DNA from: an uncultured bacterium
GTDB taxonomy: Bacteria; Auribacterota; Erginobacteria; Erginobacterales; CAZKCI01
Direction of reading: 5' to 3'
DNA: 64,000 nt
Assembly: GCA_964551475.1 (NCBI GenBank)
Contig: CAZKCI010000064.1
Location: forward strand, 19,643-83,642
In this document: positions 42,757-64,000 of the stretch, piece by piece
Layout of the letters: each line of letters opens with the position of its first letter
Numbering within the stretch: position 1 is the first letter of the stretch
Made by a program: the position numbers and the translations under genes
The notes under the pieces: model-generated
What the model was told of the DNA's origin: nothing
The model's database searches: none
The model's input: only the letters and a program-made list of their open reading frames with translations

Positions 42757-42796
42757 TTTGGACATTTAAGGTCCGATCGGACCAGAAATGTCCAAT
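42757..42796. repeat. 38-bp near-perfect palindrome TTGGACATTT-aa-GGTCCGATCGGACC-ag-AAATGTCCAA
   Basis: Read directly. It is a member of the CGATCG-cored palindrome family also present at 57428-57653. Confidence 0.8.
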
Positions 42797-52524: not shown

Positions 52525-54942
52525 ATGAGCGCGGACAGACGCTTCGCGCCGGCGTTCGGCCTTCTCCTGATCGCCGGGGCCATATTCATCGCGGTCAGCC
52601 TCTTCTCCTATCAGCCGGGAGACGCCGGCCATGCCGCCTCCGCGGGACCCGTCTACAACTACGGGGGCCGGGTGGGGGCCCAGATCGCGCTCTATCTTCT
52701 CCTCATCCTGGGCTACGGCGCCTGGGCCCTGCCGGTTACCTTGCTCGCCGAGGGATGCTTCCTGATCTTCTCCTCCCGGTCCCGTTCAGTCCTGGTCACT
52801 CTCCTCTACGAGTTCGCCGCGCTGGCCTCCTTCTCCGGCCTCTGGGGGCTCAGAAGGGATGTCCCTCCCCGCGCCCTGGGCTGGCAGCTGGAGCGGGTGG
52901 GCTGGGGGGGATACTGGGGGAGGGAAGCGAGCGGCTTCCTGCTTTCCAACCTCGGACTGATCGGCGCCCGCATCATCCTGCTCACCGTCTTCGTCCTTTC
53001 CGTCCTCCTGCTCACCGACATGAAGCCGCTCTATTGGTCGTTCGGCTTCATCCGCCGGGCGGTCCTCTTTGCCCGCTCGCTCCTCCCCTCCGGGCGGGTG
53101 GTCAAGGTCGGGCGGACGCCCGCCCGCTCGCCTCCGGCCGCGGCGAAGGCCCTCCCCCGCCGCGCCGACGAGGAGCGGAGGAAGGAGCGGGAGGCCCTGG
53201 CGAAGAAGCAGGAGGAGCTCCGGCGCAAGGCCAAGGAGCTCGAGGTTCTCAAGGCCCGCGAGAAGAAGGAGGCGGAGGAGAGGCGCCGCCGGGAGGAGGA
53301 GGAGGCCCGGGAAAAGGCGCGGGCGGAGAAGGATCGCCGCGCCCGGGAGGCCGAACGGGAGAAGGAGCGGGAGAAACAGGAAAAGCGTCGGGAGGCGGAG
53401 GCCGCCCGGCGGAAACGCGCCGCCGCGGTTCCGGCCGGCGCCCCGGTCCGGACGGCCGTCGCCACGCCGGGAGGCGTCTACCGCCTCCCCACGGCCGACC
53501 TCCTGATCCAGCCGCCGCCGCTGGCCGACCGCGAGCTCAAGGACGACATCGACGTCAACTCCAAGATCCTGGAGTCCACGCTCCAGGACTTCGGGATCGA
53601 GGCGAAGGTGGTGGGGGCGGAGCGGGGGCCGGCGATCACCCGCTACGAGCTCCAGCCCGCGCCCGGCGTCAAGGTCCAGAAGGTCAAGACGCTCGACAAC
53701 GACATCGCCCTGGCCATGAAGGCGATCTCGATCCGGATCCTCGCCCCCATCCCCGGCAAGGCGGCGATCGGGATCGAGGTCCCCAACTCCTCGACGGCAC
53801 TCGTCTACGTCAAGGAGATGATCGAGTCGGAGGAGTTCCGGGACCCCAAGATGCTGCTCCCCCTGGCCCTGGGCAAGGACATCGCCGGGAAGCCGCTGGT
53901 GGCCGACCTCACCGACATGCCCCACCTCCTGATCGCCGGGGCCACCGGTTCGGGCAAGACCGTCTGCATGAACGCGGTGATCGTGAGCCTCCTCTTCGCC
54001 CGGACGCCGGACGAGCTGAAGATGATCCTGGTCGACCCCAAGAAGGTGGAGATGACCGCCTACGGGCGCCTCCCCCATCTCCTCTGCCCGGTGGTCACCG
54101 ACGCGGTGAAGACCTCTCTCGCCCTGTCCTGGCTGGTCAAGGAGATGGAGAGCCGCTACGATCTCTTCGCCCGGGTGGGGGCGCGGAACATCGAGGGCTA
54201 CCAACGCGCCTCCAAGGACGTTCCCCTCAAGGAAGGGGAGGAGCCTCTCCCGGCGACCATCCCCTACATCCTCTTGATGATCGACGAGCTGGCGGACCTG
54301 ATGCTGGCCGCCCAGACCGAGATCGAGAACCAGATCGCCCGCCTCGCCCACCTCTCCCGGGCGGTGGGGATCCACATGATCCTCGCCACCCAGCGCCCCT
54401 CGGTCGACGTGATCACCGGCATCATCAAGGCCAACTTCCCGGCCCGCCTCTCCTTCAAGGTCTCGGCCAAGGTCGACTCCCGCACCGTCCTCGATACCTC
54501 GGGGGCGGACAAGCTCTTGGGCAACGGCGACCTCCTCTTCCTCCCTCCCGGCACGAGCCGCCTGATCCGGGCCCAGGGGACTCTCTGCCACGACTCCGAG
54601 ATCGAGGCGGTGGTCGGCTTCGTCAACCGCCAGCGCGAGCCCCAGTTCCGGGCGGAGATCCTGCAGAGGGCTCCGGGCGGGGGGGCGGGGGGGATCGCAA
54701 TGGGCGGGGGGGAGGACATCCTCCTCGAGGCGGCGGTCGAGGTGATCAAGCAGACCGGGCGGGCCTCGGTCTCGGTCCTCCAGAGGAAGCTCAAGATCGG
54801 CTATTCCCGGGCCTCCCGGATCGTTGATATACTGGAAGAGAGGGGCGTGGTCGGACCCTTCCAGGGTTCCAAGGAGCGCGAGGTCTTGATCGACACCTAC
54901 GCCGGGTCGGCGCCGTCCGGCGACAAGGACGAGGAAGAATGA
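52525..54942 (+). CDS. ftsK: DNA translocase FtsK/SpoIIIE
   Basis: N-terminal 4-TM domain and a Pro/Glu/Arg-rich linker. The motor has Walker A GATGSGKT and Walker [12 protein letters not shown]-terminal gamma winged-helix domain. Confidence 0.9.
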
Positions 54943-55439
54943 GCGGCCTCCACGATCTCGGTTCGTCCCTGAAGAAGGCGCGGGAGGCGAAGGGGGCGAC
55001 TCTTCCCGAGGCCGCCGCCTCGACCAAGATCAAGCTCTCCTACCTGGAGGCGCTGGAGAACAATCTTCTCGACAATCTCCCCCCTCACGCCTACGTCAAG
55101 GGGTTCCTCAAGATCTATACCCACTACCTGGGCATGCCGTCGGAGCCGATCCTCCTCGCCTTCGACCAGGCGACGGGCGCGGAGGAGCCGGAGATGGTCC
55201 TCGTCCCCTCGCGTCCTGACCAGGCGGTCCCCTGGCTTCCGAAGATCCGCTGGGCGGCGGCCCTCCAGGCCCTGGCGGGTCTCCTGGTGGCGGGACTCCT
55301 CGCCTGGGGCGTGATCAAGCTGATCCGGGGGGAGAAGATCATGGAGACGCCGACCGAAGGCTTCTCCCTGATCACCGACCCCTACTCTCCGGAGACGGTG
55401 CAGAAGCTGCCGCTCCCCGCCGCGCCCGCCCCCCGCTGA
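54939..55439 (+). CDS. RodZ-like cytoskeletal protein (N-terminal XRE-type HTH, single TM)
   Basis: HTH (…LPEAAASTKIKLSYLEALE…), the DUF4115-like …HAYVKGFLKIYTHYLG… and a TM segment (AAALQALAGLLVAGLLAWGVI). ATGA overlap with ftsK. Confidence 0.55.
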   Translation: MSGLHDLGSSLKKAREAKGATLPEAAASTKIKLSYLEALENNLLDNLPPHAYVKGFLKIYTHYLGMPSEPILLAFDQATGAEEPEMVLVPSRPDQAVPWLPKIRWAAALQALAGLLVAGLLAWGVIKLIRGEKIMETPTEGFSLITDPYSPETVQKLPLPAAPAPR

Positions 55440-55447
55440 AGATTTCC

Positions 55448-55677
55448 ACGAATTGACACGAATTTTCACGAATTAGGCTTGGCCCGGCTCGGCATTTTAA
55501 CCCGCGAATAACGCGCCTGCCCGCCGCAGCGCATAGCGCGGAGGCGGGAATAGCGCGCGAAGGGGTTCGATTTGAACGGTTTCAACGTCTTCAACGATTT
55601 CAACGGCCGTTCAGTCGGTCACGTGTAACGTGTAACGATTTCAACGACTGCAACGATTTTAACGTCTTCAACGCTTC
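55448..55677 (+). repeat. Composite repeat region upstream of rimO: (CACGAATT)x3, CGCGAATA/GCGCATAG/GGGAATAGCGCGCG motifs, then a ~10-unit 9-mer array (NNTTCAACG)
   Basis: …gatttccacgaattgacacgaattttcacgaatt… and …ggtttcaacgtcttcaacgatttcaacggccgttcagtcggtcacgtgtaacgtgtaacgatttcaacgactgcaacgattttaacgtcttcaacgcttc. Confidence 0.8.
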
Positions 55678-55679
55678 TC

Positions 55680-57029
55680 ATGAAGGCCAGCACCGCTCCC
55701 GTCCCCTTCGCCCTGGTCAGCCTCGGCTGCCCCAAGAACTTCGTCGACTCGGAGGCGCTCGCGGGATCCCTCCCTCCCGATCGCTATTGCCTCACACCGC
55801 ATCTGTCGGAGGCGGAGGTGATCGTCGTCAACACCTGCGCCTTCCTTGCCTCGGCCCGCGCCGAATCGCTGGAGGCCCTGAGCAGGGCGGCCAGCTGGAA
55901 AAAGAAGAGCTGCCGGGCCTTGGTCGCGGCCGGCTGTCTGCCCCAGTTTCTGGGAAAGGACGCCGCGCGGGAAATGCCCGAGGCGGACATCATCCTCGGC
56001 CCCGGCGAGTGGCTGTCTCTCCATCGGCGTCTTTCCGCCTTCCTCGATCGCGCCGCCCGGGCGCGGCCGCTCATCCGCCGCGTTCCCGTCTTTCCTGCGG
56101 GCGAATGGGACCGTCGTCGTCTCGGCCCCTCTCACACATTCTGTCTCAAGATCGCCGACGGCTGCGATAACCGCTGCGCCTACTGCCTGATCGGCCGTCT
56201 CCGCGGTCCCTACCGGTCCCGTTCTCTTCCCGTTCTCCTCGCCGAGGCCCGGCGCCTGGCGGGGGAGGGGGGACGGGAGATTGTCCTGGTGGCCCATGAC
56301 ACGGCTTTTTACGGGCGGGAGAAGAACGGCCGTTCTCTCCTTGCCCGGCTGATCGAGGGCTTGGAGGCGATCAAGGGGATCGACTGGATCCGCCTCCTCT
56401 ATCTCCATCCCTCCCACCTCGACGGGGATTTTCTCCGGACTCTTGCCGACTCGCCCAAGTTCTGCCGCTACCTGGACATCCCCCTCCAGCACATCGACGA
56501 CCGGGTCCTTGTCCGCATGGGACGCAAATCCTCCCGCCAGAAGATCGAGCAGCTCCTCGATCTCTGCCGGAGCCTCATCCCCGGTCTCGCTCTCCGGACG
56601 ACTCTGATGACCGGTTTCCCCGGCGAGGGGGAGGAGGAGTTCCAGTCGCTCAAGGAGTTTGTCCGCTGGCAGCGTTTCGACCACCTGGGCGTCTTCGCCT
56701 TCTCTCCGGAGAAGGGGACGCGGGCGGCCTCTCTCCGTCCCCGCGTCCCCCCCCCGCTCGCCGCCCGCCGCCGTGACGAGCTGATGCGCCTGCAGAAGAG
56801 GATCTCGCGGGCGAAGTTGAAACAGCGGATCGGCGAGGAGATCGAGGCGCTGGTGGACGGCCCTTTCCCGGAGAACGGCGCGGGCCTCGTGGTCGGCCGG
56901 TCCCGCTTCCAGGCCCCCGAGGTCGACGGCCTGACCGTGGTGGAAGGGGAGGGGATGAAGCCGGGCGACCTGGTCCGCGCCCGCGTCACCGCCGCCTCCG
57001 CCTACGACCTTTACGCGCTGAAGCTGTAG
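55680..57029 (+). CDS. rimO: Ribosomal protein S12 methylthiotransferase RimO (radical-SAM MTTase with C-terminal TRAM domain)
   Basis: N-terminal MTTase Cys triad (…SLGCPKN…VVNTCAF…), radical-SAM CDNRCAYC, and a C-terminal TRAM domain. Confidence 0.85.
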   Translation: MKASTAPVPFALVSLGCPKNFVDSEALAGSLPPDRYCLTPHLSEAEVIVVNTCAFLASARAESLEALSRAASWKKKSCRALVAAGCLPQFLGKDAAREMPEADIILGPGEWLSLHRRLSAFLDRAARARPLIRRVPVFPAGEWDRRRLGPSHTFCLKIADGCDNRCAYCLIGRLRGPYRSRSLPVLLAEARRLAGEGGREIVLVAHDTAFYGREKNGRSLLARLIEGLEAIKGIDWIRLLYLHPSHLDGDFLRTLADSPKFCRYLDIPLQHIDDRVLVRMGRKSSRQKIEQLLDLCRSLIPGLALRTTLMTGFPGEGEEEFQSLKEFVRWQRFDHLGVFAFSPEKGTRAASLRPRVPPPLAARRRDELMRLQKRISRAKLKQRIGEEIEALVDGPFPENGAGLVVGRSRFQAPEVDGLTVVEGEGMKPGDLVRARVTAASAYDLYALKL

Positions 57030-57056
57030 GCCCGGTCTGCGACCGGGCGTTTTTGT
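57030..57056 (+). terminator. Rho-independent terminator GCCCGGTC-tgc-GACCGGGC-GTTTTTGTTG after rimO
   Basis: 8-bp GC stem plus a U-tract, immediately after the rimO TAG. Confidence 0.7.
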
Positions 57057-57064
57057 TGAATTTT

Positions 57065-57272
57065 TGTGGGAGCGGCGTCCTCGCCGCGATCCATGACGGC
57101 TTGGCCTTTTTAACCGCGAATTCACGCGAATAAATCGCGAATAGCCCGGATACTGATCACTGATTACTGATCACTTCTTTTTCAGTTACTGTATTCCCTG
57201 TGGGAGCGGCGTTCCTGCCGCGATTCTGTCGTTTCTTGTTTTCTGTGGGAGCGGCTTCTCGCCGCGGTCGCC
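57065..57272 (+). repeat. Three copies of a 28-nt REP-like palindromic unit (YTGTGGGAGCGGCKTYCTCGCCGCGRTY) at irregular spacing
   Basis: Copies are at ~57065-57092, 57198-57226 and 57243-57272; each contains the small hairpin GCGGCG…CGCCGC. An (ACTGATY)x3 array and (CGCGAAT)x3 motifs lie between copies. Two more copies in inverted orientation are at 59726-59791. Confidence 0.75.
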
Positions 57273-57427
57273 CGATCCCTGCGCATCGCGGGCAATTCCC
57301 CGCCCGGTCTATCGCGGGGGTAAGAAAGCCGGAAGGTTTACAGGCGTTGTACGCAACCGCCAGATTGCCAAGCGGTTAGCGGATAAATCCCCCCCCACTG
57401 TCAACCCGTTCCTCTAAAACATCGGCT

Positions 57428-57653
57428 GGATTGGACACTTTTGTACGATCGAAAAAAAGTGTCCAATCCTGAGGAAGTCAAAACGAGGAATCCCGGTTGC
57501 TCAGCATCTCAAACCGGAGAGGCATTCACGTCGAGGAACTGGGTGGATCCGGCTTGGGACACTTTCATTCCGATCGGAATGAAAGTGTCCCAACCCGAGC
57601 GGATGAGAATCAGCGTGACCGGAACAACCCTTGCCCGATCGGACAAGGGTTGT
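57428..57653. repeat. Three large palindromes with a CGATCG(G) core and TTGG(G)ACA…TGTCC(C)AA arms
   Basis: P1 57428-57469 GGATTGGACACTTTT-gtacgatcgaaa-AAAAGTGTCCAATCC. P2 57554-57593 is a perfect 40-bp palindrome TTGGGACACTTTCATTCCGATCGGAATGAAAGTGTCCCAA. P3 57624-57653 ACAACCCTTGCCCGATCGGACAAGGGTTGT. They lie in a lower-GC segment. Confidence 0.85.
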
Positions 57654-57734
57654 CCCAAGAGAGGCAAGAGATGGTGATCTGGCGCAGGAAGAAGGAGAAC
57701 CCACCCAAAACGGAAGAGAACCCCATTTTTTAGC

Positions 57735-57910
57735 TCTGGCGCCTGGCCGCAGTTTCTTCGCCAGTCTTGGCGCCGCCAGCTTCACGGTTGCCACGATCTG
57801 CCCGTAGCCCGTGCATCGGCAGAGGTTGCCGTCGATCGCCTCCCGGATCTCATGTTCGGAGGGATTGGGATTTTGGTCGAGCCCGAGTTCGATAATCGCA
57901 TCACTCTTTT
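57735..57910 (-). pseudogene. Remnant (C-terminal ~45 aa only) of a [2Fe-2S]-binding small subunit of a molybdopterin oxidoreductase (CoxS/XdhC-like)
   Basis: Minus-strand translation QKSDAIIELGLDQNPNPSEHEIREAIDGNLCRCTGYGQIVATVKLAA… contains the family-defining GNLCRCTGY motif. An in-frame stop lies immediately upstream and no N-terminal ferredoxin-like domain is present. Confidence 0.55.
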
Positions 57911-58057
57911 GCTATTTACTTATATATGCCGCCCAGGTTCTCTGCTGTAAAGAGGAGGCCGGAGGTAGGCACTAAACAGGTCAATCCTTGGTCTGGCGTC
58001 GGTCCCTCGCTGGCTGTTTCGGCATTTCGGACGCAGAAGAATTTGTTCGATTCTCCC

Positions 58058-58086
58058 TTGACAGGTCCATCCGGCCGGGATAGTAT
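58058..58086 (+). promoter_or_regulatory. Candidate sigma70 promoter for the ArsR-family gene: TTGACA - 17 nt - TAGTAT (overlapping TATATA)
   Basis: cccTTGACAggtccatccggccgggaTAGTATatagc; a GGAG RBS lies 10 nt before the ATG at 58111. Its coordinates overlap the track ORF 57916..58497 (-), which is dismissed as spurious under noticed_but_rejected; the overlap is acknowledged rather than contradictory. Confidence 0.55.
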
Positions 58087-58110
58087 ATAGCAAAATGGAG
58101 ATATATAAAT

Positions 58111-58464
58111 ATGAACGACCTGCGTCGGATAGAACGGATTTTCAACGCGGTGGGGAACGACACCCGTCTGCGCATCCTGAAAATGCTCGAGGTCAAGCCC
58201 AGGTGCGTCTGCGAGGTGACGCATATCCTGGGGATCGCCCAATCGAGCGTTTCGCGGCATCTGGGCCTTCTTCGGGATGCCGGGTTGATTGACAACCGAA
58301 AGGACGGATTGTGGGTCAACTATTCGCTTGTTTCCAGCACCGATGACGTCATCGCCTCGATCGTCGTCGGCCTGAGAAGGTGGGGGAACGAGGACCCGCA
58401 GATAACCAAGGACAAAGAGAAAGCCCGGACAGCCAAACGGGAGAGCATCTGTGCGAAGGGATAG
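58111..58464 (+). CDS. ArsR/SmtB-family metalloregulator
   Basis: …DTRLRILKMLEVKPRCVCEVTHILGIAQSSVSRHLGLLRDAGLI… a winged HTH with the CVC metal(loid)-binding motif in the first helix. Confidence 0.8.
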   Translation: MNDLRRIERIFNAVGNDTRLRILKMLEVKPRCVCEVTHILGIAQSSVSRHLGLLRDAGLIDNRKDGLWVNYSLVSSTDDVIASIVVGLRRWGNEDPQITKDKEKARTAKRESICAKG

Positions 58465-58530
58465 GCTCGGGTTTTTATCTTTTTCTCCCGCGGCCAAATA
58501 TTCAGATATAGAAAATCAGAGGAGATCATT

Positions 58531-59703
58531 ATGAAGCAGTGGCTCTTATTTTTCGCGATGCTGGCCGTGTTCTTGCTGGCGTATTCTTTTCCATTCGATG
58601 AAATGGGTTTTGGCGGGCCGGTCAAGGAAGCATTTCTGATGCTCCAGGAGTACGCCCAGCAGCACGTCCTTCTCTGTTTGGTTCCGGCCTTCTTCATCGC
58701 CGGGGCGATCAGCGTCTTTGTCAACCAGCAGGCAGTGATCCGCTACCTTGGCCCCCGAGCCAATAAGGTGCTGTCGTACGGAGTCGCTTCGGTCTCCGGA
58801 ACCATCCTGGCCGTCTGTTCTTGCACCGTACTTCCCATCTTCTCGGGGATCTACCAGCGGGGTGCCGGGCTGGGACCAGCCTGCGCCTTTCTCTACTCCG
58901 GCCCGGCGATCAACGTCCTCGCCATCATCCTGACCGCGCGGATACTGGGGATGGAACTGGGAGTGGCCCGGGCGGTCGGCGCAGTCGCCTTCAGCGTCAT
59001 CATCGGGCTCGCCATGCACTACATCTTTCTCAAGGAGGAACGTGCGCGAACGGTCGCGGCCAACGGTTTCAGCGGCGGAGAGGAAGAGGAAGGACGGCCG
59101 CTCTGGAAGACGGCCCTCTATTTCGCCTCGATGATCGCTATCCTCGTCTTCGCCAACTGGAGCGGGGCGACGAAACAGGAGGGCGGGGTCTGGGCCTGCA
59201 TCTTCAAGATCAAATGGGTTCTGACCGGAATTTCGCTTCTTGCTCTGATCGCCATGCTCGCTACCTGGTTTAAAAAGGACGAACTGAAGAGCTGGACATC
59301 CGCTACCTGGACCTTCTCGAAGCAAATCCTTCCGCTTCTTTTAGGGGGGGTGCTGGTGTCGGGGTTTCTCCTCGGCCGCCCCGGTCATGAAGGACTGATC
59401 CCGTCGAGATGGATTGTCGGTTTGGTCGGAGGCAATTCCCTCTTTGCCAACTTCTTCTCTTCCTTCGCGGGGGCGCTGATGTACTTCGCCACACTGACCG
59501 AGGTGCCGATCCTCCAGGGCTTGATCGGTTCGGGGATGGGGAAGGGGCCGGCCCTGGCGTTGCTCCTGGCCGGGCCGGCCTTGAGCCTGCCGAGCATGAT
59601 GGTGATCAGATCGATGATGGGGACGAAAAAGGCGTTGGTGTTTATTGCCTTGGTTGTAGGTATGTCCACGATCACGGGGATGATCTACGGGGCACTGTTC
59701 TGA
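58531..59703 (+). CDS. Permease of the ArsP_1/DUF318 family (organoarsenical/metalloid efflux candidate)
   Basis: Polytopic protein with the conserved Cys-containing motif …SGTILAVCSCTVLPIFSG… and an internal duplication typical of DUF318 permeases. It is adjacent to a thioredoxin-like partner gene. Confidence 0.65.
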   Translation: MKQWLLFFAMLAVFLLAYSFPFDEMGFGGPVKEAFLMLQEYAQQHVLLCLVPAFFIAGAISVFVNQQAVIRYLGPRANKVLSYGVASVSGTILAVCSCTVLPIFSGIYQRGAGLGPACAFLYSGPAINVLAIILTARILGMELGVARAVGAVAFSVIIGLAMHYIFLKEERARTVAANGFSGGEEEEGRPLWKTALYFASMIAILVFANWSGATKQEGGVWACIFKIKWVLTGISLLALIAMLATWFKKDELKSWTSATWTFSKQILPLLLGGVLVSGFLLGRPGHEGLIPSRWIVGLVGGNSLFANFFSSFAGALMYFATLTEVPILQGLIGSGMGKGPALALLLAGPALSLPSMMVIRSMMGTKKALVFIALVVGMSTITGMIYGALF

Positions 59704-59725
59704 GGTGAGCTTGTTGAATGGTGTT

Positions 59726-59791
59726 TGTGGGAGGGGCATTCTTGCTCCGATCCAAGACGGCTCTGATCGCGACAAGAATGTCGCTCCCACA
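59726..59791. repeat. Pair of REP-like 28-nt units in inverted orientation (TGTGGGAGGGGCATTCTTGCTCCGATCC … GATCGCGACAAGAATGTCGCTCCCACA)
   Basis: Related to the 57065-57272 units, in a head-to-head arrangement (BIME-like). Confidence 0.65.
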
Positions 59792-59837
59792 GTATGCAGA
59801 GACAATGCGCGACGTGAATCCATCAGGGAGGCTGACT

Positions 59838-60080
59838 ATGAAGATCGAAGTCCTGGGAACCGGATGTCCGAAATGCCACAAGGTGAAGGAGAACGTGCGT
59901 ACCGCCCTGGCGGAGCTGAAAAAGGAAGCCGAGATCGTCGAGGTCAAGGATTTGAAGGCCATCTCCTCATACGGGGTTATGCTTACTCCCGCGTTGGCGA
60001 TCGACGGAGAGGTCAAGACGGTGGGGAAGATCCCCTCGGTGGAGGAGGTCAAGAAACTGATAGCGAATTCGACCAAATAA
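59838..60080 (+). CDS. Small thioredoxin-fold protein (redox-active disulfide protein 2-like, CPKC active site)
   Basis: MKIEVLGTGCPKCHKVKENV… ~80 aa. It is the classic partner of DUF318 permeases. Confidence 0.7.
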   Translation: MKIEVLGTGCPKCHKVKENVRTALAELKKEAEIVEVKDLKAISSYGVMLTPALAIDGEVKTVGKIPSVEEVKKLIANSTK

Positions 60081-60099
60081 CCGAAGAGAGGAGAAGCTA

Positions 60100-60474
60100 A
60101 TGACTGCTAAAAGCAGTTGCGGCTGCGGCGGCACGGTGAAACTAGTCTTCCCCTGCTCCGGGGCGTCCGACACCGGGGAGATCGCCGACCGCGCGGCGCG
60201 GAAGATCAGTTCCGAAGGCACCGGAAACATGTATTGCCTGGCGGGGATCGGGGGGCGGGTCAGCGGCATTATGGCCACCACGAAGGCCGCCTGCCGGGTC
60301 CTGGCGATCGACGGTTGCCCTATCGCTTGTGCGAAGAAGACACTGGAAGCGGCGGGCTTCTCGGGTTTTCACCATATACGGCTCAACGATCTGGGGATGG
60401 AGAAGGGGGAGAGCCCGGTGGTGCCGGAGAGGATCGAGAAAGTGGCGGAGGCGGCGAGAAAGCTTCTCGCCTGA
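60100..60474 (+). CDS. DGC-domain putative zinc-binding protein
   Basis: Cys-rich: CGCGG…CSGAS…C…AIDGCPIAC (DGC motif). Confidence 0.6.
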   Translation: MTAKSSCGCGGTVKLVFPCSGASDTGEIADRAARKISSEGTGNMYCLAGIGGRVSGIMATTKAACRVLAIDGCPIACAKKTLEAAGFSGFHHIRLNDLGMEKGESPVVPERIEKVAEAARKLLA

Positions 60475-60479
60475 AGATA

Positions 60480-60929
60480 ATGATGAAACAAACCGCGCGT
60501 TATCTGAAAGAGATGGTACTGCTGACGGCGATTTTGGTGGCTGTCCAAGTTATTACCTCGCTGGGATGCTCCCCCAAAGAAGGCGAGCCTGCCGGTTCCG
60601 GTGAGGCATTCAAAGCCCTGCCTCCCTTCAGCGGTCTTCCCCGCCTGGTCGACCTGGGGGCGGACAAGTGCATCCCCTGCAAGATGATGGCGCCGATCCT
60701 GGAGAAACTGCGCGGGGAATACGCCGGCGTCTTCGATGTGCATTTCATCGATGTCTGGAAAAATCCGGGGGCGGGCACAGAGTTCGGCATCAAGGTCATT
60801 CCCACGCAGATATTTTACGACGGGACCGGCAAGGAGTTGGAACGCCACATCGGGTTCATCTCCAAAGATGACATCCTGGCCGCGTGGAACAAACTGGGGG
60901 TAACTATCAAGAAAGGGGCGACTAAATGA
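60480..60929 (+). CDS. Thioredoxin-like lipoprotein (TlpA/ResA-like; CIPC active site)
   Basis: A signal/lipobox region (…VQVITSLGCSPKE…) and the thioredoxin motif LGADKCIPCKMMAP. Confidence 0.6.
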   Translation: MMKQTARYLKEMVLLTAILVAVQVITSLGCSPKEGEPAGSGEAFKALPPFSGLPRLVDLGADKCIPCKMMAPILEKLRGEYAGVFDVHFIDVWKNPGAGTEFGIKVIPTQIFYDGTGKELERHIGFISKDDILAAWNKLGVTIKKGATK

Positions 60930-61858
60930 GTCTCGTTAGAATATCCGTCGCGGCGGCGTTGGCCATGGCGTGTTTTTTCACCCTTCCCGCCGGGGCACAG
61001 GACAAGGTTGCGTCTGGCACCCTCGAATCGCTCTATCCCAATCTCGCCTCGGGCATTCTGATGTATGCCCAGGTGGCGCCGCTGCCGGGGAATATCCTGC
61101 TCAGGGCCGAAGGGATGGAGATAGCCCAGAAGGATATCGATCAGTTCGTCGCCCGACAGCCGAAGCGCCTCCAGCCGGAGATGGCGAAATCCGGCTTCTT
61201 CGCCCTGGAGCAGGTAGCGACCGAGCGAATACTGCTGAAACTCGCCCGGGACGAAGCGGCGAAAAGCAGCCGCGACGTTTCCGGAATGACGGACGACCAG
61301 GTCCGGCAGACCTTCTTCGACGGTCTCACCCGTGACATAACCGTCAGCGAGGGGGACGCGGAGAAGTTCTATAAAGAAAACGAGACCCTGTTCTGCGGCG
61401 CTCCCCTGGCCCAGATCCGCCAGCAGGTCGAATCCCAGGTATCGCAGGACAAGAAACAGCGCTTCCAGGACGACTACTATCGCAACCTCGGGCAGAAGAT
61501 GGGAATAGTCGTCGCCGATGCCTGGCTCAAGGATCAGGCGCAAACCGCCCGGAACAACCCGCTGGACCAGGCCCGGGCCGCCAGCAAGCCGACCCTCGCC
61601 GTCTTCAGCGCCAAGAGCTGCTGCGGCCCGGACAAAATGGGACCGATCGTGGGGGCCATCCAGAAGACCTTCGGGGACGCCATCAACTGCGTCTCCATCG
61701 ATCCGCGGCGGGAGCAAGTCCTCTCCACACGTTATGGAGTTCGCACGATCCCCACGCAGATTTTGTTCGACCGGAACGGCAGGGAGTCTTTCCGCAACAA
61801 CGGCCTGATCACCGAGAAGGATCTGGCCGATAAAATCGGCAAACTGAAAGCCTCCTGA
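60926..61858 (+). CDS. Secreted protein with C-terminal thioredoxin-like domain (atypical SCCGPDK motif) and N-terminal chaperone-like region
   Basis: Signal peptide MSLVRISVAAALAMACFFTLPAGAQD. The C-terminal …LAVFSAKSCCGPDKMGPIV…TIPTQILFD… has a thioredoxin fold pattern. Confidence 0.5.
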   Translation: MSLVRISVAAALAMACFFTLPAGAQDKVASGTLESLYPNLASGILMYAQVAPLPGNILLRAEGMEIAQKDIDQFVARQPKRLQPEMAKSGFFALEQVATERILLKLARDEAAKSSRDVSGMTDDQVRQTFFDGLTRDITVSEGDAEKFYKENETLFCGAPLAQIRQQVESQVSQDKKQRFQDDYYRNLGQKMGIVVADAWLKDQAQTARNNPLDQARAASKPTLAVFSAKSCCGPDKMGPIVGAIQKTFGDAINCVSIDPRREQVLSTRYGVRTIPTQILFDRNGRESFRNNGLITEKDLADKIGKLKAS

Positions 61859-61859
61859 T

Positions 61860-62558
61860 ATGCAAGAGATCTTCATTCATCTGACCCGCGCGGTCGAGGG
61901 GGCCCCTCTCCTCGCCTTGGGGGCCTCCTTCGTTTGGGGTGTCCTGAGCATCCTGCTGAGCCCCTGCCACCTCGCCTCCATCCCCCTGATCGTGGGTTTC
62001 ATCGACGATCAGGGCACCATCTCCACCCGCCGGGCCTGCCACCTCGCCATCCTCTTCGCGGTGGGGATCCTGATCACCATCGGGATCGTCGGCGCGGTGA
62101 CCGCCGCCCTGGGGAGGATGATGGGCGACGTCGGGAGATACGGGAACTACCTGGTCGCGGTGATCTTCCTCGTCGTCGGCCTCCATCTGCTGGGTGTCAT
62201 CCCGATGCCCGGGTCGGGTCCCGGCAAGGTCGGGATGAAGCGGAGGGGGCTTTTTGCCGCCTTCCTCCTGGGCCTGGTTTTCGGGATCGCACTCGGCCCC
62301 TGCACCTTTGCCTACCTGGCCCCCATGCTCGCCGTGACCTTCCAGCTCGCCTCCACCAACCTTCTCTACGGGCTGGCGCTTCTTCTCGTCTACGGGATCG
62401 GCCACTGCTCGGTGATCGTCCTGGCCGGGACATTCACTGAGGTCGTGCAGCATTACCTGAACTGGAACGATCGTTCGCGGGGGGCTTTGATCGTGAAGAA
62501 GATCTGCGGTGTCCTGGTCATCCTCGGCGGGCTCTATCTGGCCTTCGGCGCCCGTTAG
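61860..62558 (+). CDS. ccdA: Cytochrome c-type biogenesis / thiol:disulfide interchange transmembrane protein (CcdA/DsbD core)
   Basis: 6 TM segments with the two conserved Cys motifs LSPCHLASIP and GPCTFAYLAP. Confidence 0.85.
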   Translation: MQEIFIHLTRAVEGAPLLALGASFVWGVLSILLSPCHLASIPLIVGFIDDQGTISTRRACHLAILFAVGILITIGIVGAVTAALGRMMGDVGRYGNYLVAVIFLVVGLHLLGVIPMPGSGPGKVGMKRRGLFAAFLLGLVFGIALGPCTFAYLAPMLAVTFQLASTNLLYGLALLLVYGIGHCSVIVLAGTFTEVVQHYLNWNDRSRGALIVKKICGVLVILGGLYLAFGAR

Positions 62559-62631
62559 ATCGAAGCGACGGGGGGGAAAATAAGCGCTCTACGATCGGAG
62601 AAGTTATGGCCATGAACCAAACGAGGAGGAC

Positions 62632-62847
62632 ATGACGAAGACCGATCAGGGTGATGGCGCAACCCGTATAAAAAAGTTGGTGCGGGAGGCGTATGCGAAG
62701 GTGGCGAAGGGGAGGGGATCGTGCTGCGGCCCTTCGTCCGCGTGCTGCTCGGCCAGCACGACCGAGTCCATCGGAACCAGCCCGGCGAAAATCCGGGATC
62801 TCGAAGATTCCGTCGCCAGCATCAAGGTCAGGGCTGTTAAACCTTAG
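62632..62847 (+). CDS. Small Cys-rich protein (71 aa) resembling only the N-terminal ~45 residues of arsenite S-adenosylmethionine methyltransferase (ArsM)
   Basis: …[24 protein letters not shown]… with a good GAGGAGGA RBS. No methyltransferase fold follows in any frame. Confidence 0.4.
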
Positions 62848-62876
62848 CGGAATCCGGGAAATACAGGAGGGCCGGG

Positions 62877-64000
62877 ATGAGCGCGGGAGAAAGTCAGGTC
62901 AAGAGAGGCTTGGGTTTCTTCGAGAAGTATCTAACGGTCTGGGTCATCCTCTGCATCGGAGTGGGGATATTCCTCGGGAGGATTGCCCCTGGTGTGGCGA
63001 CGTTCCTGGACGGTCTCGCTATCTACGTTGGCGACGCCCCCGCCGTGTCGATCCCCATCGCGATCTGCCTTTTTTTCATGATGTACCCGATCATGGTAAA
63101 GATCGACTTCGCGGAGGTGATCAGCGCCGGCAGGACGCCGAAGCCAGTGGCCCTCACGCTGTTCGCAAACTGGGCCATCAAGCCGTTCACCATGTACGCG
63201 ATCGGGGTCTTCTTCCTGGGCACCCTGTTCATCAAGTTCATCGGGGTTGACGCGGTGGATTACGTGAAGATGCCGCTCGGGCTCAACCTCGATCTTGGAG
63301 CGGCCTACGGCGCGGGGAAGGTCGTCATGCACGGGGGGATGAAAATGCTCGCGGTGCCGCTCTGGCGGAGCTATTTTGCCGGCTGCATCCTCCTCGGCAT
63401 CGCCCCTTGCACGGCGATGGTCCTTGTCTGGGGGTACCTCGCCAAGGGGAACGACGGCCATACGCTCGTCATGGTGGCGATCAATTCCCTCTCCATGCTC
63501 CTTCTCTACGGCCCGCTCGGGGGCTTCCTTCTCGGGGTCGGCCGCATCCCGGTCCCGTGGCAGGCGCTCGTTCTCTCGATTGGGATCTACGTGGCCCTGC
63601 CCCTCGTCGCAGGGTACTACTCGCGGAAATGGATCATCCGGGCCAAGGGAATCGTGTGGTTCAGTGAGAAGTTCCTCCACGTTCTTACGCCCGTGACCAT
63701 CATCGCCCTTCTCACCACGCTCGTGCTCCTCTTCTCGTTCAAGGGCGAGATCATCACTGCAAAGCCGCTCACAATCCTCTGGCTCGCCATCCCCCTGTTC
63801 CTCCAGACGATGCTCATATTCTGGATCACCTACGGCCTCGCGAAGGTCCTCCGCCTCAGTTACGAGGACGCGGCGCCAAGCGCCATGATCGGCGCCTCGA
63901 ACCACTTTGAGGTCGCCATCGCCACCGCAACGCTCCTCTTCGGCCTCTCCTCCGGTGCGGCCCTCGCCACCGTGGTCGGCGTCCTCATCGAGGTGCCCTC
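62877..64000 (+). CDS. acr3: Arsenite efflux transporter, ACR3 family (3' end outside window)
   Basis: ATG 62877 after AGGAGG. Own translation [34 protein letters not shown]…[21 protein letters not shown]…[22 protein letters not shown]… matches the ACR3/bile-acid:Na+ symporter fold. It is open to the window end. Confidence 0.8.

Follow-up and report, generated by a model that had tools for sequence, protein, structure and literature searches.

The window analysed here is a 64,000-nt stretch of contig CAZKCI010000064.1. Its final part, downstream of rimO, carries a nine-gene arsenic-resistance (ars) operon, which is separated from rimO by intergenic repeats and the remnant of a [2Fe-2S] subunit gene (Table 1). 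The host is an uncultured bacterium of the Planctomycetes-Verrucomicrobia-Chlamydiae (PVC) group with a guanine-plus-cytosine (GC) content of ~65%. This assignment was based on the shared truB-to-rimO gene order and on the relatives of RimO, the two nearest of which in the databases share 78% and 75% identity with it; those that come next, with 55–56%, include a cluster with Candidatus Erginobacter occultus (phylum Auribacterota, PVC group). The contig is 242 kb long and stems from JGI metagenome 3300036982. The 3' end of acr3 and the genes past position 64000 were read from L001, a longer stretch around the window that reaches window position 72558 (window position = L001 position + 51859). 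Other loci used for comparison are numbered in the same way.

Layout and gene content of the operon

The operon is preceded by one promoter and comprises nine co-directional open reading frames (ORFs) with gaps of at most 134 nt; no internal terminators were found in it. The identities of the genes and their order from ArsR to ACR3 had been proposed in a first-pass annotation made from the sequence. Each identity was confirmed by Pfam and NCBIfam profile searches, and the genes were found to follow one another in that order within one co-directional operon. The arsR promoter, described there as textbook-like, is borne out by its fit to the sigma-70 consensus (Table 1), and all features listed in that annotation were recovered in place or within a few bases of it.

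In ArsR, a CVC motif in the region of the DNA-binding helix (RCVCEV) provides the two paired cysteines that make up the As(III) site and is kept in 12 of 14 homologues. The CSC motif of the ArsP-family permease was found in all 31 homologues compared, the CPKC motif of the Thioredoxin_3 protein in 50 of 55 and the CIPC motif of the anchored thioredoxin in 66 of 74. The SPC and GPC motifs of CcdA, which contribute two conserved membrane cysteines, are both present in 57 of 57. The ATG at 59838 is the likely start of the Thioredoxin_3 gene. An upstream start at 59718, corresponding to a database gene call of 120 amino acids (aa), was rejected: it reads through a hairpin of repetitive extragenic palindromic (REP) units, and the homologues are 76–77 aa long. 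Literature searches for DGC proteins with arsenic and for Auribacterota with arsenic returned nothing relevant. The 149-aa thioredoxin has an N-terminal hydrophobic segment and is predicted to be exported. The adjoining 310-aa protein, annotated at first as a secreted thioredoxin-like protein, does have a secreted thioredoxin fold, but it also contains a SurA-like domain, and its CxxC motif is replaced by Cys-Cys-Gly-Pro. Two of the operon proteins match the Thioredoxin family of Pfam. The acr3 product passes its family model even without the C terminus, which lies past the window; the full gene encodes 402 aa.

The small ORF between ccdA and acr3 had been characterized as a tiny Cys-rich ORF resembling the N terminus of ArsM. 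The match to the N-terminal part was upheld, but the C terminus is present as well. Residues 11–47 of the 71-aa ORF align to residues 9–45, and residues 42–70 to residues 250–278, of the intact ArsM encoded in L084 (BLASTP). At the DNA level, window positions 62657–62772 correspond to L084 8545–8660 and positions 62779–62840 to L084 9297–9358. The deletion junction is situated at 62772–62779, and ~636 bp (212 codons) including the methyltransferase core are gone, with the reading frame kept. Judged from its sequence, the ORF is an internally deleted arsM. The intact ArsM proteins of L084 and L083 pass the full-length ArsM model NF008823, which the 71-aa ORF fails (24.2 bits vs a cut-off of 263); the ORF consists of the two ArsM termini only, and its match is to the N-terminal part of the model. 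A second assembly (L002), which may stem from the same sample, is identical across the junction.

Table 1. Features at the end of the window, in order of position (window coordinates).
Feature	Position	Strand	Characteristics
rimO	55680..57029	+	Pfam UPF0004/Radical_SAM/TRAM_2; final gene of the conserved synteny block
rimO intrinsic terminator	57030..57058	+	stem 57030-57048 (8 bp, 7 GC pairs), then T run
Three REP-like units	57065-57092, 57199-57226, 57244-57271	+	form TGTGGGAGCGGC..GCCGCGAT
Three CGATCG-centred palindromes	57419-57478, 57550-57597, 57621-57656		covarying inner arms
Conserved 26-nt box GAACCCACCCAAAACGGAAGAGAACC	57697..57722		41 nt from third palindrome
CoxS/XdhC-type [2Fe-2S] small-subunit 3' remnant	57732..57905	-	58 codons; PF01799 Fer2_2
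Promoter TTGACA-17-TAGTAT	58058..58086	+	sigma-70-type; upstream of arsR; 10/12 positions match (consensus scan)
arsR, ArsR/SmtB repressor	58111..58464	+	NF033788 82.5 bits (cut-off 55); HTH_5
arsP-family permease (ArsP_1/DUF318)	58531..59703	+	PF03773 254.9 bits
Inverted pair of diverged REP units (4th and 5th)	59726..59791		inside operon, between arsP and Thioredoxin_3 gene
Thioredoxin_3 protein (MTH895/ArsE family)	59838..60080	+	cytoplasmic; TIGR00412 98.3 bits (cut-off 62)
DGC-domain Cys-rich protein	60100..60474	+	PF08859 102.6 bits; without signal peptide
Anchored periplasmic thioredoxin (membrane or lipoprotein), predicted	60480..60929	+	149 aa; PF00085; CIPC motif
Secreted 310-aa protein	60926..61858	+	SurA-like chaperone domain, then thioredoxin fold with invariant S-C-C-G-P-D
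ccdA (DsbD_TM)	61860..62558	+	PF02683 40.4 bits (cut-off 27.1)
arsM remnant, 71-aa ORF	62632..62847	+	N-terminal 48 codons joined to C-terminal 23 codons
acr3 arsenite efflux permease	62877..64000, continuing to 64085	+	TIGR00832 356.1 bits (cut-off 282.8)

Conservation of the operon type and of its 310-aa protein

Gene linkage was tallied by tblastn over 84 loci with a homologue of the 310-aa protein, comprising 80 loci from a metagenome scan and four earlier ones. The denominators are the loci with enough flank, which for the combined tally of ACR3, ArsM or ArsC means at least 5 kb on both sides. In 63 of 66 loci, the gene directly upstream of that for the 310-aa protein encodes the anchored thioredoxin, and in 53 of 58 the one directly downstream is ccdA. 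ArsR (31/32), ArsP (30/32) and Thioredoxin_3 (42/48) were likewise found to be linked, as were DGC (25/48), an ArsF-family lipoprotein (23/48) and ACR3, ArsM or ArsC (18/25). The linked genes are co-directional throughout the tallied loci, and the architecture recurs in ~80 metagenomic loci, Phycisphaerae and Planctomycetota metagenome-assembled genomes (MAGs) among them. The tally establishes that the large thiol-redox set noted in the first-pass annotation is a conserved unit of an ars operon and no chance neighbourhood. The description of this set as richer than typical ars operons applies to the DGC and 310-aa genes, but not to the combination of CcdA, a thioredoxin plus redox-active disulfide protein 2, a set already reported in 2010 (PMC2963123).

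The 310-aa sequence gave 108 matches among 5.8 billion proteins searched by a word index. An exhaustive profile search returned 238 representatives (50% identity clusters) at E ≤ 1e-30. The named family members belong to Phycisphaerae, Sedimentisphaerales and Planctomycetota MAGs; a plasmid search with the protein gave no match. After 147 representatives had been fetched and aligned, 32 were assigned to the Cys-Cys type, in which C-C-G-P is invariant, and most others carried the canonical CxxC of the wider family. C157 was considered as a third arsenic ligand and rejected as a general feature: it is Cys in 29 of 31 sequences of the first alignment, but in only 3 of the 32 Cys-Cys representatives. 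The protein contains the helical N-terminal/C-terminal chaperone module of SurA-like proteins but no parvulin peptidyl-prolyl isomerase domain. In comparison with SurA, PpiD, Cj1289 and PrsA, with which it shares 6–22% sequence identity, a C-terminal thioredoxin fold takes the place of the parvulin domain. Some CxxC-type members consist of a single chain with an anchored thioredoxin, a SurA-like domain and a second thioredoxin (P0246, P0247, P0248, P0268 and P0283). The fusion of the two partners in these distant relatives speaks for a functional link between the anchored thioredoxin and the 310-aa protein (Rosetta-stone argument). CxxC-type members also adjoin Thioredoxin_3, ArsR, ArsP_1 or DsbD_2 genes (contexts L172 and L173).

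Related operons differ in their accessory domains and genes. In ~21 of the 84, the anchored thioredoxin has a C-terminal extension of ~280 aa with a MerB-like domain (PF03243, E = 8e-19), as seen in L170:4519–5805 and L171:747–2084 and also in L098, L100, L106, L115, L121, L138–L141, L144, L146, L149, L162, L166, L167 and others. When compared with MerB2 (5c17), this domain has Cys at the positions of the catalytic residues Cys96 and Cys159, and Cys replaces Asp99; it may act in the periplasm as an organo-metal(loid) lyase or as a domain for binding. The anchored thioredoxin of the window is the short form, from which the MerB-like domain is absent. An ArsF-family lipoprotein (NF040494, 90 bits, CPAC; L086:6441–6887) is encoded between the DGC and anchored thioredoxin genes in about half of the related operons. 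A 70-aa AhpD/CMD-like CxxC protein precedes arsM in L083 (10684–10896), L092, L100, L108, L118, L119, L162, L166 and L167; NCBIfam ties its domain to ArsM-AhpD fusion selenoproteins, and the window is without that gene. The module of one Planctomycetota MAG precedes a gene for an FMN_red (ArsH-like) protein with a Tat signal (L170:7516–8223), a further hint of periplasmic redox chemistry on arsenicals.

Genomic setting of the operon

The GC content changes from 0.652 (window 1–57029) to 0.545 (57030–58110) and 0.599 (operon, 58111–64085). The operon value lies under those of all 6-kb windows across positions 1–57029 (mean 0.651, standard deviation (sd) 0.010, minimum 0.630). The gene order truB-ribF-rpsO-pnp-ftsK-HTH25-rimO is common to the window and to L088 and L089 (RimO 55% identity) and breaks directly after rimO. 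At this point L088 and L089 continue with pgsA-pgpA-bamD-lptE-holA (L088:9347–12929; L089:9467–13192), none of which is present in the 72.5 kb available around the window. In L087, the closest relative (RimO 78% identical), rimO is followed by ~1.1 kb of small ORFs, beyond which the DNA reappears in L001 at 15727 and from 18392 onward, with 91% nucleotide identity in the DUF5985 gene. In comparison with this one close relative, the window contig has an additional 10–13 kb, which hold, besides the CoxS scar and the operon, an ORF of 122 aa, a gene of the C25-peptidase/FG-GAP type and a module of BrnT plus radical-SAM/methyltransferase. In the comparison for an empty site suggested in the first-pass annotation, the shared order stops at rimO and L087 has only ~1.1 kb there. 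Other copies of the operon lie in unrelated flanks.

Of the features used to recognize genomic islands, absence from the same site in a close relative with a conserved flank was found (L087; rimO-pgsA-pgpA in L088 and L089). Mobility genes, a tRNA target and flanking direct repeats were not: no tRNA, integrase or transposase was detected nearby among the called genes or in a tRNA scan, and the repeats at the left end are native and dispersed. The regions upstream of arsR and downstream of acr3 showed no non-coding homology to any of the other loci in blastn searches, so the ends of the cassette cannot be mapped. GC at third codon positions (GC3) is 0.71–0.80 in six operon genes, compared with 0.85 ± 0.05 in the core, and reaches 0.88 in ccdA and 0.85 in acr3. 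The distance of the operon in relative synonymous codon usage, 0.581, is ~2.2 sd above the core gene groups and under the core maximum of 0.600. A deviating GC and codon-usage profile had been anticipated; GC is clearly lower, but ccdA and acr3 are native-like in GC3 and the codon distance stays within the core range.

The repeats were found where they had been reported. The three REP-like units downstream of the strong rimO terminator share a core, GTGGGAGCGGC, of which only L001 and L087 carry copies among 174 fetched loci. The terminator sequence recurs in L087, and positions 57030–57191 are homologous to L087 intergenic DNA flanking rimO on both sides. The inverted REP pair inside the operon is predicted to form a stable hairpin (RNA fold −57.9 kcal/mol, z = −4.5). 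The three CGATCG palindromes belong to a family with the consensus GGACA-N9-CGATCG-N9-TGTCC, whose inner arms vary between copies while pairing is preserved. For this pattern, 0.01 chance occurrences are expected, and the region 57419–57656 folds with −145 kcal/mol (z = −7.2). Further copies are located at window 42760–42793, L087 5912–5945 and L001 18463–18503 (window 70322–70362). The last of these lies in an insertion of ~75 nt and is missing at the homologous L087 site, which suggests that the palindromes are mobile. The box GAACCCACCCAAAACGGAAGAGAACC, as read directly from the sequence, also adjoins the 42.7-kb palindrome copy, with the identical spacing of 41 nt. An Rfam scan of positions 54000–64000 yielded sub-threshold chance matches only, and the palindromes are therefore not a known RNA family. 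Both families are dispersed, lineage-native intergenic repeats and are probably mobile. Because of this, and since the same repeats occur at window 42760, in L087 and within the operon, the proposal that the island is bounded by repeats was dropped. As a native REP pair has colonised the operon, the latter must have resided in the lineage for long.

The minus-strand [2Fe-2S] remnant, of which the C-terminal part was said to survive at 57735–57910, was confirmed with slightly different ends (Table 1). Its translation reads SDAIIELGLDQNPNPSEHEIREAIDGNLCRCTGYGQIVATVKLAA... and contains EAIDGNLCRCTGYGQIV. It matches only positions 41–75 of the 75 positions of PF01799 Fer2_2 (E = 1.9e-11), and its alignments to several CoxS/XdhC-type NCBIfam models extend as far as the C-terminal end of each model. 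Members of the CoxS/XdhC family combine an N-terminal Fer2 domain with a full Fer2_2 domain, which the remnant does not. An in-frame stop lies just upstream, so that ~100 N-terminal codons have been lost; the remnant has no stop codon of its own, and the frame remains open downstream until 57501. A search for an intact close homologue gave only 13 short fragments with 58–77% identity. No CoxS-like sequence was found near any other operon copy or near rimO in relatives, and no relative was found to carry an intact CoxS-type gene at the rimO site. The deletion of a former molybdoenzyme locus, as put forward in the first-pass annotation, is plausible and fits the fact that the truncated gene abuts the arsR promoter region.

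Two further elements of the additional segment were read from L001. The first, a minus-strand gene with six tandem repeats of 120 nt directly beyond the operon (L001:12843–15566, window 64702–67425), encodes a Peptidase_C25/FG-GAP protein of 907 aa. Beside the closest related operon there is likewise an FG-GAP/cysteine-peptidase gene (L084 1480–2778), which may be coincidence or reflect a shared lineage. The second element comprises a BrnT-toxin gene and a gene for a 668-aa radical-SAM/SPASM-methyltransferase fusion (L001:15727–18543, window 67586–70402). On either side of them lies a direct copy of a 60–150 bp intergenic element (L001 15727–15787 and 18393–18543) that is single in L087. This looks like a second inserted module of the accessory region.

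Taken together, these data support the view that the segment is accessory, was laterally acquired and has since been remodelled. The first-pass annotation had proposed horizontal acquisition; its accessory nature is backed by the synteny break, the lack of the operon in L087, the unrelated flanks elsewhere and the low GC content, but the acquisition was not recent, because native REPs are present in the operon, ccdA and acr3 have native-like GC3 values, the codon usage does not leave the range of the core, and no tRNA, integrase or transposase was detected. Both scarred genes, CoxS with its surviving 3' fragment and the internally deleted arsM, together with the native REP pair indicate a long residence with remodelling after acquisition.

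Proposed function and alternatives

On balance, we favour the view that the locus is an ArsR-controlled ars operon whose type is conserved among uncultured bacteria of the PVC group, situated in a lower-GC accessory region that starts just after rimO and furnished with an outward thiol relay. By means of its conserved extra genes, reducing equivalents probably cross the membrane and reach a secreted thiol protein that resembles a chaperone. Members of the CcdA/DsbD family transfer electrons from cytoplasmic thioredoxin to exported thioredoxin-like proteins. In keeping with such a relay, the operon encodes a DsbD_TM protein with two membrane cysteines and, adjoining it, a putatively exported CxxC thioredoxin. 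As(III) or a trivalent organoarsenical would release ArsR from the promoter, and cytoplasmic arsenicals would be expelled by ACR3 and ArsP. Electrons would flow from the cytoplasmic Thioredoxin_3 protein via CcdA to the anchored periplasmic thioredoxin, which would maintain the 310-aa protein with its vicinal dithiol in the reduced state. The SurA-like domain of the latter would hold unfolded exported proteins, and its Cys-Cys pair would capture or strip As(III) or organoarsenical adducts, or resolve mixed disulfides, on client cysteines or act on arsenicals directly. As a net effect, the cell envelope, in which exported arsenicals build up, would be protected.

The relay is proposed because the logic of CcdA-ResA/TlpA systems is established. 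In cytochrome c maturation (CcdA-ResA/TlpA/CcmG), a cytoplasmic thioredoxin, a two-Cys CcdA and a membrane-anchored exported CxxC thioredoxin are connected in series, and the window genes have the same architecture. Unlike there, the window genes are under ArsR control together with arsenic pumps, heme-lyase and ccm/res genes are absent, and the terminal acceptor would be a new chaperone-thioredoxin protein. Binding of arsenicals is proposed because As(III) has an affinity for vicinal thiols, which bind trivalent arsenicals, and because of the precedent of ArsD, which carries Cys12-Cys13 on a thioredoxin fold as part of a Cys12-Cys13-Cys18 site. ArsD and the 310-aa protein share a thioredoxin fold in which a vicinal Cys-Cys pair closely follows the first beta strand, where thioredoxin has its active site. 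In contrast to ArsD, the 310-aa protein has no PF06953 match, is predicted to be exported, and lacks both an ArsA partner and a conserved third Cys.

Several observations weigh against this interpretation. The window contains neither a thioredoxin reductase nor an obvious client, the scheme assigns no role to the DGC protein, and the ArsP_1 family also includes Cu/Zn exporters. The third Cys of a classic S3 arsenic site, C157, is not conserved, so the Cys pair alone must suffice for arsenic. CxxC-type relatives are found beside ArsR, ArsP_1 and Thioredoxin_3 genes on short contigs without visible arsenic-specific genes, and the wider module may therefore answer to general thiophilic stress. 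Finally, ArsG-type DsbD_TM proteins are reportedly efflux permeases and not electron carriers, as work by Chen and co-workers from 2019 and the NCBIfam name would have it.

The last point leads to an alternative modelled on the ArsEFG system of Shewanella putrefaciens 200, which is said to have been described by Chen, Zhang and Rosen in 2019 and is reflected in NCBIfam model names ('MTH895/ArsE' for the Thioredoxin_3 family, 'ArsF nitroreductase subunit' for the small lipoprotein family and 'ArsG efflux permease' for the DsbD_TM family). In this case, ArsE and periplasmic partners would reduce aromatic nitro-arsenicals or another organoarsenical, and the DsbD_TM protein would be the ArsG permease exporting the product. 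Both systems have a small Thioredoxin_3 protein of the ArsE family together with a DsbD_TM membrane protein in an ars operon. The window protein passes TIGR00412, ArsG is the best NCBIfam match of the window CcdA, and the ArsF-family lipoprotein (cut-off of NF040494, 60 bits) occupies the same position in the half of the related loci that have it. ArsP and the ArsM of relatives also point to organoarsenicals, and about a quarter of the relatives have the MerB-like domain fused to the anchored thioredoxin. We nevertheless judge this explanation unlikely. CcdA scores 48.2 bits against an ArsG (NF040495) cut-off of 200 and thus fails the model, its Cys motifs are of the electron-transfer type and invariably kept, and no window protein matches ArsF. 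ArsEFG has no counterpart of the anchored thioredoxin, of the SurA-like/thioredoxin protein or of the DGC protein, and synthetic nitro-arsenicals are an unlikely selective agent for PVC bacteria of sediment and groundwater.

The remaining two explanations dispense with a dedicated periplasmic function. A general periplasmic thiol-homeostasis or cytochrome-c-maturation set could happen to lie beside ars genes in a native region, whose low GC content would result from membrane-protein composition and a long intergenic stretch. The native-like GC3 of ccdA and acr3, the codon-usage distance inside the core range, the failure to find mobility genes and the CxxC-type relatives lacking visible arsenic-specific genes would agree with this account, but it is highly improbable in view of the linkage to ArsR and ArsP (>90%) and to ACR3, ArsM or ArsC (72%) across dozens of diverse loci, the single promoter for all nine ORFs, the nearest relative without the operon at the same site, the synteny break at rimO and an operon GC content below that of every upstream 6-kb window. 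Least probable of all is that the thioredoxin genes merely feed a thioredoxin-coupled arsenate reductase, ArsC, with the periplasmic proteins being incidental. For this there is a published precedent: CcdA, a thioredoxin plus redox-active disulfide protein 2 were described in ars operons in 8 instances from 7 organisms, nearly all with arsC; the thioredoxin-like proteins were suggested to donate electrons to CcdA, and a role in support of arsenate reduction was proposed (Castillo and Saier 2010, PMC2963123). Those operons resemble that of the window in having DsbD_TM/CcdA, thioredoxin and Thioredoxin_3 families inside an ars operon, and LMWP-type ArsC genes lie in or beside the cluster in L084, L085, L086, L129 and L135. 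However, the window operon has no arsC, and ArsC is found in only 5 of 25 well-flanked loci. Moreover, two of the three thioredoxin-fold proteins, one of them SurA-like with Cys-Cys, carry export signals, CcdA would move electrons outward, away from a cytoplasmic ArsC, and a DGC protein is added.

We therefore place the operon among the known ars operons with thiol-redox genes, as a variant that differs in having the SurA-like/Cys-Cys protein and the DGC protein and in lacking arsC, and the proposed relay elaborates a theme already in the literature. A bolder and more tentative proposal is that the anchored thioredoxin, the SurA-like/Cys-Cys protein and CcdA might constitute an undescribed pathway dedicated to extracytoplasmic defence against arsenicals. 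The 310-aa protein would then be a chaperone that corresponds, in the periplasm, to ArsD: it would bind As(III) or methylarsenite by its vicinal dithiol, shield or repair exported Cys proteins and be recharged by cytoplasmic electrons. The three-cysteine MerB-like domain of related relay thioredoxins could be an oxygen-independent carbon-arsenic lyase. At present, the work offers a clean annotation together with a hypothesis that can be tested, rather than proof of a new system.

To our knowledge, arsenic resistance is understood almost wholly in terms of cytoplasmic chemistry and efflux, and little attention has been paid to the fate of the envelope, in which exported thiol proteins encounter the trivalent arsenicals that were expelled. 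In the operon type described here (over 80 environmental loci, with 32 or more clusters in the Cys-Cys subfamily at 50% identity), a putatively complete outward electron relay and a dithiol chaperone-like protein are paired under an arsenic-responsive repressor. If the proposal holds true, periplasmic arsenic damage control would become a resistance function, the ArsE- and ArsG-type genes of many anaerobes would be open to an alternative reading, and a function would be assigned to two uncharacterised families, the SurA-like/thioredoxin proteins and possibly the DGC proteins.

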